A stretch of 64,000 nt of DNA from a virus (Duplodnaviria > Caudoviricetes): IMG/VR virus record IMGVR_UViG_3300028048_000001, positions 1-64,000 of that record; one strand, 5' to 3'. The position numbers and the translations under genes are program-made. The notes beneath the pieces were generated by a model that made no database searches, was not told the origin of the DNA, and saw only the letters and a list, made by a program, of their open reading frames with translations. Positions 1 to 10,295 of the stretch are shown in pieces; within the stretch, counting starts at the first letter, position 1; every line of letters starts with the position of its first letter.

Positions 1-164
1 AATGGAGCACTATTAAAACAATTATATCCATTCAAAGGTGCAGTAGCAGTACTTCCATTATACCCATCAGGAAATACTATAGTTGAACCCCATTTAACAC
101 ATGTACAAGTATTAGTACCCCATTTAATAACAGTACATTTTGTACTACCCCATTTAATAGCCAT
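1..164 (-). CDS. Partial CDS (runs off the window) with three tandem [IV]KWGxxxCT-type repeats; possible tail fibre/adhesin-associated protein
   Basis: ATG at 164 translates MAIKWGSTKCTVIKWGTNTCTCVKWGSTIVFPDG...; open to position 1; not in the ORF track. Confidence 0.55.
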   Translation of the reverse strand, partial: MAIKWGSTKCTVIKWGTNTCTCVKWGSTIVFPDGYNGSTATAPLNGYNCFNSAP

Positions 165-362
165 ATAAAAAATATATTATTCTTTACATAGCACATACTA
201 GCGTCATATAAAATAAAAATCCATAGGAGCAATCCTATGGATTTTTATAAAAAAGAAAAATAATTTATATTTTAAAAAAAATATTAGATATATAAGAATT
301 TTTAATAAAAAATAAAAATCTATAAGAGATTTTTCTCCTATAGATTATAGATAAAAATAAAA

Positions 363-446
363 TGCTAGCAGTGGGACTTGAACCCACACGGTAAAATTAC
401 CATCGGATTTTAAGTCCGAAGCGTCTGCCTATTCCGCCATGCTAGC
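363..446 (-). tRNA. tRNA-Leu (UAA)
   Basis: Cloverleaf GCTAGCA...TGCTAGC-A, anticodon arm TCGGA-CT-TAA-AA-TCCGA, long variable arm, GGTTCAAGTCC T arm; no encoded CCA. Confidence 0.95.
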
Positions 447-450
447 ATAA

Positions 451-523
451 TCTCCGATGCGAGATTCGAACTCGCGACAACTTGATTAAAAGTCAAGTGC
501 TCTACCTCCTGAGCTAATCGGAG
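451..523 (-). tRNA. tRNA-Lys (UUU)
   Basis: Anticodon arm CTTGA-CT-TTT-AA-TCAAG, D arm GCTC/GAGC, GTTCGAATC T loop. Confidence 0.95.
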
Positions 524-527
524 TAAA

Positions 528-599
528 CAGCCCCAGGTGGAGTCGGACCACCAAATACAAGAGTCAAAGTCTTGTGCCTTACCGTTTGGCGATGGGGCT
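528..599 (-). tRNA. tRNA-Gln (UUG)
   Basis: Anticodon arm CAAGA-CT-TTG-AC-TCTTG; T loop is the variant TCCGACT. Confidence 0.9.
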
Positions 600-609
600 T
601 AATTAATTA

Positions 610-880
610 ATCTTTTTCTTATATCTCCCCACACGGGCAAGACATAATTTATTTGAGTCGATTATTCTCAAAAACTCCACTGGACCGATTGGGTCAATTC
701 CAGGAGAAGGTATTTTGTACCTTTGCCCATATCCATCCTTTAATCTCATCAGCCAGAGTATGGGAAAGAAACTGATGGGGTACTTGCAATCTTTATACCT
801 TTACAGAGTATAATCTCTGTATGGAAGTGAACGCACCTTCACCCAGGCTTGATAGACAGTACTATCTATCAAAAGATTGC
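610..880 (-). ncRNA. Unclassified structured RNA, copy 1 (four-way junction, pseudoknot, hairpins)
   Basis: Same helix order as 969-1259 with compensatory sequence changes; lies between two tRNAs. Confidence 0.7.
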
Positions 881-884
881 TCAA

Positions 885-958
885 TGGAGCGTCGGGGACT
901 CGAACCCAGGACCGGTCGGTTATGAGCCGACTGCTCTAACCAGCTGAGCTAACGCTCC
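885..958 (-). tRNA. tRNA with CAU anticodon (Ile2-like or Met)
   Basis: Anticodon arm GTCGG-CT-CAT-AA-CCGAC; body resembles Firmicute tRNA-Ile2 rather than initiator tRNA. Confidence 0.9.
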
Positions 959-968
959 TTACATGGTG

Positions 969-1259
969 ATCTTTTTCTTCCCAATTCATCATCGAATCGG
1001 TAATCTTTCGGTTGATCACTTAATCCGAAAACTCTATCTTGACTACGTGGGGTCTCAAGAGAGGTTATTGTATCACCTTGCCCATATTCTTCCCACAATC
1101 TATCAGCCCGAATATGGAAAAGACACTAAAAGCTGATAGAGATGCAGAGCACTTTTACCTTTTACAGATTAGGATCCTAGTAATCTGTTAATGTTTTGCA
1201 TCGAAACATTAGGAATACTATTTATATTAAATATTAATTTAATATAAATAAAGTGCTCT
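969..1259 (-). ncRNA. Unclassified structured RNA, copy 2
   Basis: P1 AGAGCACTTT/AAAGTGCTCT encloses three hairpins; then pseudoknot TCTATCAGC/GCTGATAGA with CCATATTC/GAATATGG; shared 3' AAGAAAAAGAT. Confidence 0.7.
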
Positions 1260-1315
1260 TCTTCTGATACATCTATCAGAAATTTTGTTTTATTTTGAAT
1301 GATTACTCATTCTCA

Positions 1316-1402
1316 AGCTGGCCTTTTTTATTTATGGGAAACGCACCACATAAATATTATGCATGTCTGCACCATGATAATGGGAGTATTGTCCAGCTAC
1401 TC
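1316..1402 (-). ncRNA. Structured RNA domain, repeated at 1629-1704
   Basis: P1 AGCTGG/CCAGCT versus GATTAG/CTAATC in the other copy; conserved ACAATACTYCCAT and ATGGTRCAGACATGYATAA. Confidence 0.6.
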
Positions 1403-1451
1403 TCTATTTTTCAATATTATATTATATAATTGAAAATTTTTATTTTTTAAA

Positions 1452-1525
1452 TCGGGATGACATGATTCGAACATGCGACTCCCTGTTCCCAAAACAGGTG
1501 CCCTACCAGACTGGGCCACATCCCG
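1452..1525 (-). tRNA. tRNA-Pro (UGG)
   Basis: CGGGATG/CATCCCG acceptor stem, anticodon arm CCTGT-TT-TGG-GA-ACAGG, GTTCGAATC T loop. Confidence 0.95.
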
Positions 1526-1532
1526 TAAATAA

Positions 1533-2147
1533 TAATGCACAGTGCATCCACTGTGACTAACTCATGATAATGACCCGAATTATCTAACCGGTATTCAGAT
1601 AATCCTATCATGTTCGGATTTATCCTAAGATTAGCCTTTTCACTATTAGTAAAAATAGTTATACATGTCTGTACCATTTTTATGGAAGTATTGTCTAATC
1701 ACTCTTATAATTAAATCTCCAAACCCAAAGAGATTTATGTCGAGTGTAATACCGATTTTTTATTGTAAAAGTTTTTACCATTACAATGGGACAAGATCTA
1801 AAAGCCCTACTTCATCACAATGTTTTGTGATATACCTATCTCGGGCAAGATAGCCATTATAATATTATGTATTTTTATTTATATATAACATTAAGTGATC
1901 AATTTAATATTATATATAAAAATATCTAATCCATAATAATTAGATACCATAAATAACCATATTTGGTCCGAAGATGTACTTTCTTCAACGGGCATATAAA
2001 ACAAGTAAACCTGTTTTTATTACCCTCAATTATGGTGGACGATCTTATATTTTTATTAATTAAAAAGAAGATCTTTACCCAGATAATTTATAGTCTATTA
2101 TGAAATTATAAAATTATCAAAATTATTTCATAACGTTCTTTGCATCA
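1533..2147 (-). ncRNA. Putative large (~615 nt) multi-hairpin non-coding RNA upstream of tRNA-Pro
   Basis: No credible ORF; dense succession of stem-loops; termini complementary (TGATGCA...TGCATTA). Confidence 0.5.
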
Positions 2148-2422
2148 TATATAAGGTTACTATTTAATATTAAAATAGTCTAGTTGTCCTAGAACGACTT
2201 GGCCAGCCATACCTCTATCGATATAATTATAAATATTTACCTTTGTTTTCTATCTATAGTTTATATCGATTATACGACACTAATAGTTATAGTAGTAATC
2301 GAAACTACTTATAATAATATGAATTATTATAATATACCAATATATAACCTTATTATTTATTATATTTTTTATACTACTCCTGCAACTCTGTACTTATTAG
2401 TTACAGGAGTAGTAAAATATTA

Positions 2423-4246
2423 TTATTTATAATTGAAGGATTTTATAATATTCATCCCCCAATTTAATATATTTCCTTTTATCGATGCTTTTGTAACCCA
2501 TAAAGCCAAGTTAATTTTGTCTGTATTTTCTACAATATTATCAAGAATTGTAGGATACAATCTCCAAATATCTTCTTTATTCTTGATAATTACAATTACA
2601 CTCTCTCCTTTCTGAGGCTGATTATTACTAGAATTATTTATCATTCTGGAAGCCTCCATAATATAGAAAGTATCAACATTACTTTCCATGAAATCTTCAT
2701 AAGTGCAGTTAAAAAGTAGAATTTCACCACCTTTTAAATTTTTCTGAGAAGTAATTTTTTCAAAAGCTTTTATATATCCCCCTGTATCTTCAATGTTACC
2801 GTTAATATATTGAGGGACATAACTTCCAGTTTTTGCATTATAGTGCATTGTGATAAGATTAACATCCATATCAATACATACTTTCATCACAGCACCATAT
2901 GCACATTGCATACCAGAAACATATAATTTCAACTGTTTAATTTTGTTGTTATTATATTCATCAAAATCAAAATTATTTCTAATAAAATCCCTTACAATTC
3001 TTTCTTGTTCTGGATAGTTAAACATTAATTCCTGATCGAAAGATTCAGGAAAAATGAATTTATTTACAGGCATTGGGTGTCTGTCTGCAATAAGTCCAGC
3101 TTCTACAGTTTCAGAATTATTTTTGGATGCAATGTTAAATGAAAAATTATCAAATCCAAAAATTTTCTGAAGTTCTGTAAATTTATCAGGATTAAATTCA
3201 AAATCATTGAGTCCCAATCTTGTTCTTTCAATTGTTTTATCATATTTTACTGTTTCACTGATAAATTGCAGTACTTCTTCATTGCTAATAATACCGTCCT
3301 CATTTTCAAATTTGGTATTACACGCTTTATGAGCATACTGCACAAATTCCTGATTTGTTACATCAAAGAAATCAATTAATCTTAAAATACCATCATTAAT
3401 GATTACAAAATAGTATCTGTTTCTAAAAGAGTTTAAAATCTCAAACTCTTTTTTGTTATTAATTACTATATCTTCTCTAAGATCAGCAGGAGATCTGTTT
3501 TTAGATATACACCAGATGACCTGTTTAGGAAATTTATCATTTTTAATATCATAAACAGGTAAATCTGTTACAAACTTTATTGTACAAATAGAATTTACCA
3601 CATTAGAATTAGGCTTTAAATCTCTATTTCTAATGGGACTCATTTTCTTATTGGTTTTCTTCATATTATCTTCCTCAAGTTTTTCCTCTTTTGCTTTTGC
3701 TGGTAATGTAATAATAACTGCACTAATATCAGTATCAGTATTTGGGCTTTTAGTAGTAGTAACATTTTTTGCTTTATCTTTCGATGTTACATTCCGAGAT
3801 TTTAATATCTCTTTTATTACATACTCGGACGTATTATATTTAGCTGCTAATTTATTCCTACTGTTACATGATGGATTAGTCATGTAATCTAAACAAACAT
3901 TATCTTTTTCTTCTTCAAGAAAGTCATATAACGTTTTTGTAATTTTGTGTACAAAATTACTATCTACTTCTTTATTTTTATCTTTTATTTTTGTTTCTTG
4001 TTCTTGTTTAGTCATGTCTACCTCTTTTGAGTTTTCTTTTAATAAAGTATTTAATAGAAGAGGATTCATTCCTCCTCTAACTTTTATAACTAATCCAGTA
4101 TCTACTTTAAATTTATTTGCTATTTGCCTTAAATCACTGGTTGTTAATAATTTATTACATCGTATAATTTCTCCTTTTATCTCATTTTCAATTTTTGGTA
4201 TTAATTCTTTTAATTGTTTCTTACTAAATGAACCTTTTTGACTCAT
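2423..4246 (-). CDS. Hypothetical protein (607 aa), probably early
   Basis: Long ORF, GAGG RBS, upstream early-type promoter motif at 4291-4307. Confidence 0.85.
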   Translation of the reverse strand: MSQKGSFSKKQLKELIPKIENEIKGEIIRCNKLLTTSDLRQIANKFKVDTGLVIKVRGGMNPLLLNTLLKENSKEVDMTKQEQETKIKDKNKEVDSNFVHKITKTLYDFLEEEKDNVCLDYMTNPSCNSRNKLAAKYNTSEYVIKEILKSRNVTSKDKAKNVTTTKSPNTDTDISAVIITLPAKAKEEKLEEDNMKKTNKKMSPIRNRDLKPNSNVVNSICTIKFVTDLPVYDIKNDKFPKQVIWCISKNRSPADLREDIVINNKKEFEILNSFRNRYYFVIINDGILRLIDFFDVTNQEFVQYAHKACNTKFENEDGIISNEEVLQFISETVKYDKTIERTRLGLNDFEFNPDKFTELQKIFGFDNFSFNIASKNNSETVEAGLIADRHPMPVNKFIFPESFDQELMFNYPEQERIVRDFIRNNFDFDEYNNNKIKQLKLYVSGMQCAYGAVMKVCIDMDVNLITMHYNAKTGSYVPQYINGNIEDTGGYIKAFEKITSQKNLKGGEILLFNCTYEDFMESNVDTFYIMEASRMINNSSNNQPQKGESVIVIIKNKEDIWRLYPTILDNIVENTDKINLALWVTKASIKGNILNWGMNIIKSFNYK

Positions 4247-5173: not shown

Positions 5174-5893
5174 TTATTCTTTTTTATTTTTGATCTCGCT
5201 ATATTTTTTCTGTTTATCTTTCTTCTTTTTAGTATTATATTCTTCTACTGCTTTTTTTGCTTCTTCAATTTTATCCATTACTTTTTTTCTTTCTTCAGCT
5301 TCTTTATTAACTTTATCTACAGTTTTATTAGCCATATTATCTATCTGATCTACTAAAGAAGATTCATTATTAATAGATTCTTTTTCATCATTATTATTAT
5401 TATTTTCTTCTACATTATTAGGATAATCGCTCTCTTTTCCAATGTTAACTTTTAATCCATATCTTCTACAGCCTCTGATAAGTTGCATTGGCCAATCATT
5501 ATTAATAGCTTTTCCTAAATTCTCTCCACCAAGAATGTTTTTATTTATACATTCACTAGGAAACACTACATGAAATTCAGCATTCTCAAGTTCTGGATTA
5601 TCACTAATATATTTTTCTAAAATTTGATTTGCAGCTTCATCAAATGGTTTATTTACAGCTTCACAGAAAGTAAAAAATTCAAAAGCTTCAATATAAACAG
5701 CTGGTTTTTCTCCAGTTGTAGCTACAATTTTAAGATTTTCTGGATTAGAAGCATTAATTTTCATAGCTTCTAATACCGTATTAGAAACAGGGACATTTAT
5801 ATTAGTTTCTGAGTAATTTGCAGATTCTTTAACACATTTATTTATAACATCAGACTCATATATAGTCTTAGCATTCATAATATCAAAATTCAT
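5174..5893 (-). CDS. Hypothetical late/virion protein
   Basis: ORF with RBS and AACT-N6-TA motif at 5922-5933. Confidence 0.75.
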   Translation of the reverse strand: MNFDIMNAKTIYESDVINKCVKESANYSETNINVPVSNTVLEAMKINASNPENLKIVATTGEKPAVYIEAFEFFTFCEAVNKPFDEAANQILEKYISDNPELENAEFHVVFPSECINKNILGGENLGKAINNDWPMQLIRGCRRYGLKVNIGKESDYPNNVEENNNNNDEKESINNESSLVDQIDNMANKTVDKVNKEAEERKKVMDKIEEAKKAVEEYNTKKKKDKQKKYSEIKNKKE

Positions 5894-5944
5894 AATAAAA
5901 TTCCCCTTATAGAGTATTAATTATTAAAAAGTTAAAATAAAGTA

Positions 5945-9356: not shown

Positions 9357-10295
9357 ATGTCATTTATCAAAACTGTAGACGTAAGTTCATATCAATATAA
9401 TATAGATTGGAAAAAAGTAAAAGCCGCTGGAATAGATTATGCTATTTTAAGAATAGCTACAAAAACTTCTGTAGATTCTGAATTTGAATATAATTATAGA
9501 GAAGCCAGAGCTGCTAACATTAAAGTTGGTGTATATAAATTTTGTTATGCTGATACTGTAGAAAAAGCTATTATGGAGGCCAGATCTTTAGTACTTAACG
9601 TATTGGGTATTAAAATATTAGATCTTCCAATATTTTATGATTTAGAATGGGAAAAGCAAGAATCTATGTCTAAAAAAGAATTAACAGATATAGCTGAAGC
9701 TTTTTTAAAAACTATTGAGCAAAATAGTAATTATATTCCAGCAATTTATACTGGAGCTCATTGGTATAATGCTGATAAACTAGATTTAAATAGATTGGGT
9801 AAATATGATTTTTGGATTGCTAAATATGGAAAAGATACAGGAATATATGACGAATCTATTAAACCTAATATAGATATGGCAGGATGGCAATATACTTCAA
9901 AAGGTAAAGTTGATGGTATCATGGGTAATGTTGATATGTCTATATTCTATAAGGATTATGGAATATTAGCACATTCATCTACTGGTTGGTGTCAAGAAAA
10001 TGATGGAACGTGGAGATTTTATTTATCTCCTAATAAATTTGTTTCTAATGATTGGTATAAATATAAAGATAAATGGTATTGGTTTGATCAATCTGGAACA
10101 ATGGTAACTAATACATGGTATATGTATAAAGATAAATGGTATTATTTAGGATCAGATGGTGCCATGCTAACTGGATTACAGAATATAGATGGAAAATATT
10201 ATTTCTTAAATCCTGATGGTGATATGGCTACAGAACCTGTTACGTTGACTCCTGATGATAATGGTGCATTACATTATCCTGGAATAATATTATAA
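9357..10295 (+). CDS. Endolysin: GH25 muramidase with C-terminal cell-wall/choline-binding repeats
   Basis: DVSSYQ, YDLE, WQYTSKG, GNVDM GH25 motifs; repeated WYY/WYWF...G.M units. Confidence 0.92.
   Translation: MSFIKTVDVSSYQYNIDWKKVKAAGIDYAILRIATKTSVDSEFEYNYREARAANIKVGVYKFCYADTVEKAIMEARSLVLNVLGIKILDLPIFYDLEWEKQESMSKKELTDIAEAFLKTIEQNSNYIPAIYTGAHWYNADKLDLNRLGKYDFWIAKYGKDTGIYDESIKPNIDMAGWQYTSKGKVDGIMGNVDMSIFYKDYGILAHSSTGWCQENDGTWRFYLSPNKFVSNDWYKYKDKWYWFDQSGTMVTNTWYMYKDKWYYLGSDGAMLTGLQNIDGKYYFLNPDGDMATEPVTLTPDDNGALHYPGIIL

Follow-up and report, generated by a model that had tools for sequence, protein, structure and literature searches.

A small junction RNA domain recurs in front of spacer RNAs in a phage tRNA operon

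The 64,000-nucleotide (nt) stretch of DNA analyzed here (the window) is the first part of a 274,241-base-pair (bp) virus record (IMGVR_UViG_3300028048_000001) with 26.6% G+C and a 127-bp terminal repeat, and the subject of this report is a small RNA module that occurs twice near its start, within an operon of transfer RNA (tRNA) genes. From position 2422 to about 300 the minus strand is free of open reading frames (ORFs) and holds genes for tRNA-Pro, Met, Gln, Lys and Leu, called by both ARAGORN and Rfam. Long structured stretches lie between the five tRNAs, such that about 1.5 kb of the operon is structured RNA other than tRNA. Module copy A (87 nt, positions 1316-1402, minus strand) and module copy B (76 nt, 1629-1704, minus strand) flank the gene for tRNA-Pro(UGG) (1452-1525, minus strand; ARAGORN; 64.8 bits with the Rfam tRNA model). 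At gathering threshold the 4227 models of Rfam 15 matched only the five tRNAs in the window, and a covariance-model search of positions 1-3000 with E values up to 10 gave no family that overlaps either module copy. Here we show that this module forms an RNA domain in its own right, 61-87 nt long, that is co-transcribed with the phage tRNAs.

Read from 5' to 3' on the minus strand, copy A consists of GAGU, the first strand of helix P1 (AGCUGG), the joining strand J1/2 (ACAAUACUC), the hairpins P2 (CCAU-UAUC-AUGG) and P3 (UGCA-GACA-UGCA), UAA followed by a 28-nt P4 hairpin, the joining strand J4/1 (AAAAAGG) and the closing strand P1' (CCAGCU). Copy B has the same layout with a short P4: GAGU, P1 GAUUAG, J1/2 ACAAUACUU, P2 CCAU-AAAA-AUGG, P3 UACA-GACA-UGUA, UAA and the short hairpin, GAAAAGG and P1' CUAAUC. 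The minus-strand letters of both copies are exactly those described in the initial annotation, which had recognized a duplicated module on either side of tRNA-Pro. A profile built from the two copies and searched against the 274-kb genome found only these two sites (E = 1.5e-23 and 4.8e-15; next best E = 14), so their likeness is far above chance. With a covariance model of the module, designated R1 (a name it shares with a spacer RNA described below, which is a different thing), A scores 111.6 bits and B 91 bits. The minimum free energy fold of A alone is the proposed four-way junction, and that of B alone keeps P1 and P3, not P2 and P4. As the fold of B is partial and the single-sequence z-scores are modest (A -1.6, B -1.5), the structural support comes from comparison and not from thermodynamics.

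The only other phage in which the module was found is IMGVR_UViG_3300026549_000029, whose major head protein is 96% identical to that of the window phage; the module-bearing sequence of this relative is also present on a second, identical 70-kb contig. Copy C is full (L095:4173-4258) and lies between a tRNA-Pro and tRNA-Met of the relative, and copy M4 is shortened to 61 nt (L095:5175-5235; covariance model R1, 22.4 bits, E = 0.024 over 71 kb). M4 reads GAGU, P1 GAUCUG, GUAAUACCUU, P2 CCUAU-CAAU-AUAGG, U, P3 UGCU-GAUG-AGCG, UAAAAAGG and P1' CAGAUC, and its lack of P4 leaves a three-way junction. The four-way junction proposed from the two window copies therefore stands for A, B and C and is not universal. 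With a 28-nt hairpin in A, a short one in B, a 27-nt one in C and none in M4, P4 is a variable and dispensable part of the module.

Variable stems with compensating changes around conserved junctions had been described for A and B, and the homologues bear this out for P1, P2 and P3, with the junction nucleotides kept. P1 is fully complementary in all four copies despite four different sequences (AGCUGG/CCAGCU in A, GAUUAG/CUAAUC in B, GAUUGG/CCAAUC in C and GAUCUG/CAGAUC in M4). P2 is CCAU/AUGG in A, B and C and CCUAU/AUAGG in M4, and P3 is UGCA/UGCA in A and C, UACA/UGUA in B and UGCU/AGCG in M4, capped by GACA in A, B and C and by GAUG in M4. When A, B and C were aligned, 96% of cells paired and seven pairs carried changes on both sides, compared with 2.5 in shuffles (none of 500 shuffles reached this number), and controls in which the partners were slid dropped pairing to 27-43%. 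The constant parts are the 5' GAGU, J1/2 AAUAC(C)UY and J4/1 AAAAGG; the 6-bp P1 is extended by a constant Y-G pair beyond an R-G mismatch, and the 3' flank is U(U)AG-like (UGAG in A, UUAG in B and M4, UAGG in C). The U-G pairs of M4, as well as a G-U pair in the hairpin of the relative's D element (see below), fit the transcribed strand only. Because there are only four copies and paralogues are not independent, the covariation counts are small, and the comparative evidence for the structure is consistent but thin.

In A, B and C the 5' GAGU can also pair with ACUY of J1/2, with one one-sided change from G-C to G-U, and the fold of 1405-959 forms GAGUA/UACUC. A pseudoknot between GAGU and J1/2 is thus possible judging from the letters of the copies. 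Several other structural candidates were considered and rejected: the K-turn, loop E and 11-nt tetraloop receptor motifs are absent from the module, the loops of P2 and P3 are not complementary as L2-L3 kissing would need, and a Campbell-type duplication of the module would mismatch P1.

In order to define the distribution of the module, exact patterns were searched in IMG/VR, JGI metagenomes and GTDB genomes, and 29 records of related jumbo phages, gathered through the head protein, were scanned with the covariance model and a shell pattern. The pattern GACAATACT..CAGACATG gave 38 matches in IMG/VR, all by chance and none with the remaining motif, and three stricter or otherwise anchored patterns found only the relative's record and its identical 70-kb contig there. 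The JGI metagenome scan returned the same two phages plus 10 chance matches, and the GTDB genome scan six chance matches only. Over the 29 records covariance model R1 found only the relative, its matches at E values of 0.06-0.9 being rejected on inspection; the shell pattern gave two extra matches that lack the 3' strand of P1 and end in a ribosome-binding-site-like AAAAGG, and these were likewise set aside. A descriptor of the shell (GAGT, 6-nt P1, AATAC, AAAGG, P1 complement) matches exactly A, B, C, M4 and one ribosome-binding site, at window 56305, where there is no module. Relatives with about 79% identical head protein carry other, scattered tRNAs and no comparable module, BLAST of positions 1-2460 against 50,697 GenBank phage records (which should include T4 and T5) returned tRNA matches only, and no Rfam model overlapped a module in the relative's array at E values up to 1. 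It represents a new RNA family of very narrow distribution, to be placed with the unexplained stable RNAs encoded in phage tRNA clusters.

Downstream of each of the four copies comes a spacer RNA that is not a tRNA and extends as far as a tRNA 5' end. The window units are A-R2-tRNA-Met and B-D-tRNA-Pro, and those of the relative are C-D-tRNA-Met and M4-large RNA-tRNA-Gln, the large RNA being structured and about 665 nt long. R2, a structured spacer RNA of about 360 nt (959-1315, minus strand), extends from copy A to the 5' end of tRNA-Met(CAU) (885-958, minus strand; ARAGORN, Rfam), the end point of the A-R2 unit. The D element (103 nt, 1526-1628, minus strand) extends from copy B to the 5' end of tRNA-Pro and contains a CAUGAU/AUCAUG stem, a conserved AUCAUGAGUUAGUCA at 1568-1554 and a GAUG-loop hairpin at 1555-1538. 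It is homologous to the stretch after copy C, with the hairpin pairing kept through two double changes and one G-U change, and a D-element pattern matched only the relative in IMG/VR. A paralogue of R2, the spacer R1 (600-884, minus strand), runs to tRNA-Gln with tRNA-Met directly upstream and no module in front. R1 and R2 are diverged copies of about 280-360 nt that align with each other and share the blocks UCUGUAAA(A)GG, GGCUGAU(G)AGAUU, AUAUGGGCAA and GAAGAAAAAGAU; an exact R1/R2 pattern had no match in IMG/VR. The relative's large RNA (L095 about 5236-5900) keeps an R-like CCAUA...GGAUAUGG element. That one core is combined with different partner RNAs (R, D, large RNA) points to an autonomous module. 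We also observed that the final ~120 nt of R2 (959-1077, minus strand) fold as another four-way junction, which is closed by GGUGAU/AUCACC and ends 6 nt before tRNA-Met, and that hairpins with GAUG tetraloops recur in the D element before tRNAs (1538-1555), after module A (1262-1281) and as P3 of M4 (L095:5212-5223).

A phage promoter-like motif (1411-1443, minus strand) with the core TATAATATTGA at 1421-1411 ends 8 nt upstream of copy A. The motif ATATTATAATAaTGA has about 37 occurrences across the genome and often precedes a ribosome-binding site, and its weight-matrix score upstream of A is 25.9, the sole site in the array above 8; within the array it stands in front of A only. In its general form the motif reads ATATTATAATA(A/T)TGA, at times preceded by TTTCAATTA, and is often followed 30-45 nt downstream by a ribosome-binding site, with examples at window 4301, 11288, 14364, 15797, 43613, 46412, 47523 and 62421. 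It is also conserved in relatives with a 79% identical head protein. Copy B lies at the 3' side of an upstream non-coding leader (1705-2336, minus strand), parts of which are 71-85% identical to the relative phage and which carries a promoter-like TATATTATAATAATTCA at 2336-2320. At the other end of the array, a hairpin and U run after tRNA-Leu (window 320-343, minus strand) form a likely terminator of the whole tRNA and non-coding RNA operon.

Expression was assessed by placing contigs of three RNA libraries from three studies (rumen metatranscriptomes) on positions 1-2460. In run X16, contigs cover 1037-1386 around A at a depth of 1074 and 1528-2223 around B at a depth of 172; run X7 covers 1077-1386 around A (depth 90) and 1613-1955 around B, with 1939-2291 further upstream, and run X19 covers 982-1396 around A (depth 22) and 1572-1829 around B. 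The module is therefore transcribed, on the same strand and in the same operon as the tRNAs, and as depth is strongly uneven, DNA carry-over is ruled out as the source of the contigs. Within the region, contig depth in X16 peaks on the RNA that starts at A. Almost no cover is seen over 1395-1476, depth is about 0-6 across the promoter gap and the end of the upstream ORF, and 2297-2460 has no cover; gaps in cover (2297-2460, and 657-820 in one run) were not taken as proof of absence. Contigs of the leader start at 2291, 2271 and 2223, and the contig 1528-2223 ends 3 nt from the 5' end of tRNA-Pro, as expected of release by RNase P. Spacer R1 is covered by contigs at 549-927 (depth 18) and 657-811 (depth 8) and by none in X16, which sets depths of 0, 18 and 8 for R1 against 1074, 90 and 22 for A-R2 in the same runs, a comparison to be read with the poor ranking power of contig depths. 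Relative-type RNA contigs span copy C together with 106 nt upstream and 93 nt downstream of it. The 366-nt X16 contig of depth 1074 ends at 1037 directly against an Illumina adapter, which suggests a discrete, abundant RNA 3' end at this position, in a hairpin loop of R2 (...GUAGUCAAGA). No variants inside A or B were reported in the four runs compared.

These contigs bear directly on the suggestion in the initial annotation that the module is a ribozyme. The RNA contigs of two studies begin at 1386, between A16 and C17 in J1/2 of copy A, where a DNA contig reads on, and the junction is conserved; a new self-cleaving ribozyme that cuts in J1/2 would give such a start, but the hint is a weak one. 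A transcript that begins near 1402 and has lost its first 15-20 nt would give the same start, and the contig of the third study reaches 1396. This loss is more likely than a cut at A16/C17, because B and C are intact: contigs of three studies (1528-2223, 1613-1955 and 1572-1829) cross the equivalent site in B, and relative-type contigs cross C. Such unbroken passage argues against efficient self-cleavage, with the limit that contigs cannot measure cleavage. The models for hammerhead, twister, twister-sister, pistol, hatchet, hepatitis delta virus (HDV) and hairpin ribozymes gave no match at E values up to 10, in line with the unlikeness to four of these (hammerhead, twister, pistol and hatchet) that had been noted by eye, and neither the CUGANGA nor the GAAA core occurs at the conserved positions. 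An HDV-like arrangement was rejected as there is no P3 between P2 and P1'. Taken together, we consider a self-cleaving activity highly improbable.

The aptamer reading raised alongside the ribozyme fares little better. Many aptamers are indeed built like this module, as small junctions whose joining strands are invariant, whose peripheral stems vary and which are closed by a P1, and the conserved junction could serve as the pocket of a ligand-binding, riboswitch-like RNA. No expression platform is present, as neither a terminator, a sequestered ribosome-binding site nor an ORF follows any copy, and each module instead heads a non-coding RNA ending at a tRNA. An alternative pairing of the 3' strand of P1 of B with the D element is not conserved in C, and no Rfam riboswitch matched, so that this reading is very unlikely.

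Two other readings of the conserved core, as a degenerate tRNA or tRNA-like RNA or as a six-codon micro-ORF (MVQTCI...), are hardly credible. A four-way junction of 76-87 nt at a possible tRNA place would suit a tRNA relic, and spacer R1 follows tRNA-Met as R2 follows A; neither ARAGORN nor the Rfam tRNA model (RF00005), even at E = 10, calls the module, which has a P1 of 6 bp, loops of 4 nt, junction strands of 7-9 nt (J1/2 9, J4/1 7), no T-loop and, in M4, only three helices. All three full copies keep the frame ATG GTR CAG ACA TGY ATA open, with synonymous changes at both P3 positions, as a micro-ORF would have it. Against this, positions 9 nt apart share codon phase automatically, no ribosome-binding site is present, the AUG lies in a strand of P2 and is paired there, the frames no longer agree beyond six codons (one of them running through tRNA-Pro) and M4 has no ORF.

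A more serious contender is that the module belongs, as a structural sub-domain, to larger ornate RNAs (the R-type RNAs and the ~700-nt leader), which it would help to fold or assemble, like a peripheral domain of ROOL or GOLLD, without any 5'-end role of its own. A 696-nt RNA contig includes B, an R-type RNA follows both A and M4, the large RNA of the relative having kept the CCAUA...GGAUAUGG element of R, and the RNA surrounding the modules folds far better than shuffles (z of -5.0 for 1405-959, and -4.1). In addition, the setting is that of ROOL and GOLLD (phage, tRNA neighbors, rumen; PMC5737381). Spacer R1 has no module, however, B and C precede only the short D element, the core stays constant though its partner RNAs differ, and Rfam gives no ROOL or GOLLD match. 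We regard this sub-domain role as somewhat unlikely.

The record encodes split multisubunit RNA polymerase subunits, GroEL and a major head protein of the jumbo-phage type, by which, going by gene content, the virus is assigned as a phiKZ/AR9-style jumbo phage. An endolysin (window 9357-10295, plus strand) combines a GH25 muramidase domain with choline-binding cell-wall repeats, and the rumen host is therefore probably Gram-positive. Sequencing runs that contain this stretch are labeled almost entirely as bovine gut. No relatives in IMG/VR and no family were found for the protein adjoining the array (2423-4246), and the ORFs neighboring the array belong to no informative families and offer no candidate partner protein for the module.

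RNase J-type decay in the 5'-to-3' direction occurs in Gram-positive hosts. We tentatively favor the reading that the module is a non-catalytic junction that serves as the compact head of the spacer RNAs, where it would fix or protect the RNA 5' end or act as a handle for a protein, protein binding being the third function proposed in the initial annotation and a possible one. In favor of this reading are the compensated stems, the place of all four copies ahead of a spacer that ends at a tRNA, the promoter motif before A, the RNA contigs with their stop 3 nt from tRNA-Pro, the lower depth of the module-less spacer R1, the possible GAGU/ACUY pairing, a conservation on a par with tRNA-Met and the probable Gram-positive host. 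The 5' GAGU would pair with ACUY of J1/2, tying the 5' end into the junction and stacking on P1, and so folded the RNA would have its 5' end fixed and buried. Such an end may resist 5'-to-3' decay in a Gram-positive host, whether decay begins at the transcription start or at upstream tRNA-processing cuts, and the invariant P2-P3 hairpins may be presented as the protein handle. An RNase P cut at the downstream tRNA would then release module and spacer together as a stable RNA.

Several observations weigh against this head-domain reading. No promoter motif precedes B or C, and the higher abundance of A-R2 could be explained by its own promoter alone. Contigs cannot show RNA ends; B and C are found inside longer RNA contigs that continue upstream, and no trimmed 5' end is seen at the module. 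No double compensatory change backs the pairing of GAGU with ACUY, which in M4 forms only with a bulged C. A simple hairpin would suffice for 5' protection, and the invariant junction suggests a more specific role. Finally, there are four copies in only two closely related genomes.

Another reading makes the module a cis-acting handle for a protein or the phage RNA polymerase that, in the manner of the put RNAs of phage HK022 or nut-like boxes, would keep transcription going through the hairpin-rich operon. Two copies stand in one operon, A comes directly after the promoter motif, and the phage encodes its own multisubunit RNA polymerases; the constancy of P2, P3 and the junctions in three copies despite turnover of P1 and P4 suggests base-specific recognition. 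B, C and M4 lack a promoter motif in front, the P2 and P3 sequences of M4 differ (its P3 loop is GAUG, not GACA) and the neighboring ORFs provide no candidate partner, and on balance we hold this role to be unlikely.

A stronger version of 5' protection, to which we assign a still smaller chance, is that the module is a phage exonuclease-resistant RNA (xrRNA), in which GAGU knotted into J1/2 would mechanically stop a host exonuclease of the RNase J type. The phage could in that case accumulate spacer RNAs of the tRNA operon to very high levels, and the module would, to our knowledge, have no precedent among bacterial viruses as an xrRNA-like element. The xrRNAs of flaviviruses and some plant viruses are small junction RNAs in which nucleotides of the 5' flank pair into the junction, and they protect the downstream RNA from 5'-to-3' decay. 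Nucleotides 5' of the closing helix of the module may likewise pair into its junction, and the proposed effect is alike; the module differs in that it has no sequence likeness to xrRNAs, its 5' pairing has no double compensatory change and the contigs show no trimmed 5' ends. That contigs run on upstream of B and C is compatible both with stalling of an exonuclease and with its absence.

The arrays of the two phages have been rearranged, with most of the sequence unalignable between them and extra A-R2 and promoter segments in the window genome. Within this, A and C are 82% identical, the same as the tRNA-Met genes. The tRNA-Pro(UGG) genes (1452-1525 and L095:4013-4086) are too unalike for BLAST and sit on opposite sides of the module, which suggests that tRNA-Pro was gained or replaced independently in the two phages. 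A free-standing HNH endonuclease ORF (L095:4565-5155; Pfam HNH_3, E = 9.5e-10, plus a helix-turn-helix) lies in the relative's array between tRNA-Met and M4, with a tRNA-like fragment just before it (L095 4468-4525; 24.7 bits with the tRNA model, below threshold). In run X3, a DNA contig of depth ~215 joins 1450 to 1861 through 28 other letters; a commoner variant phage in this rumen sample therefore has no B, D element or tRNA-Pro but keeps the promoter region.

A further reading is that the module is a functionless duplicated remnant, moved by rearrangement of the tRNA array, for example driven by a homing endonuclease, and the shuffled array, the dissimilar tRNA-Pro genes on opposite sides, the HNH ORF and the extremely narrow distribution would all be expected of it. 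We judge this improbable. Compensatory changes keep P1-P3 paired in all four copies, the junctions are fixed while P1 and P4 have fully diverged, the module is as conserved between the phages as tRNA-Met, and A and B were free of reported variants across the four runs.

The wider interest of the module lies in the stable RNAs of phage tRNA clusters, which have been unexplained since RNAC and RNAD of T4, and of which ROOL and GOLLD show large, elaborate forms. No piece of the operon other than the module recurs ahead of different spacer RNAs. Should it set or protect their 5' ends, the accumulation of these RNAs would be accounted for, and by a small portable element amenable to testing in vitro. 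As the module is known from four copies in two related uncultured phages, any general importance is conjectural.

Among known RNA elements, the put RNAs of phage HK022 and the nut-like boxes of rRNA operons are structured cis elements of small size, present twice in a genome or operon, with one copy near a promoter and unpaired bases conserved. The module differs from them in that only copy A adjoins a promoter motif and in that the polymerase would here be the phage enzyme. The small junction ribozymes (twister-sister, hatchet, hammerhead and hairpin) are of similar size and share multiple helices and conserved joining strands; the module lacks their core motifs, and RNA contigs span B and C uncut. 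RNAC and RNAD of T4 (species 1 and 2) belong to the small stable non-coding RNAs whose genes lie among those for phage tRNAs and are transcribed along with them (PMC3014915), as are the tRNA-like stable RNAs 1 and 2 of T5 (PMC9697503). The module is likewise a non-tRNA RNA inside a phage tRNA cluster and transcribed with it, although the T4 and T5 RNAs, known here by description, are free-standing and partly tRNA-like, whereas the module is a domain of 61-87 nt that heads longer spacers and is not tRNA-like; the likeness is one of setting, with no evidence of homology. ROOL and GOLLD occur in phages or prophages near tRNAs, ROOL having first been found in the cow rumen, and co-transcription with tRNAs has been suggested (PMC5737381). 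They have ~580-800 nt with many junctions and are spread over several phyla, whereas the module is small and confined to two phage genomes, and neither family gave an Rfam match in the window or in the relative's array. Modules in the five-tRNA operon of a bovine rumen jumbo phage resemble them in setting only, again not through homology. By this setting, the closest known systems appear to be RNAC and RNAD of T4 (PMC3014915) and ROOL and GOLLD (PMC5737381).

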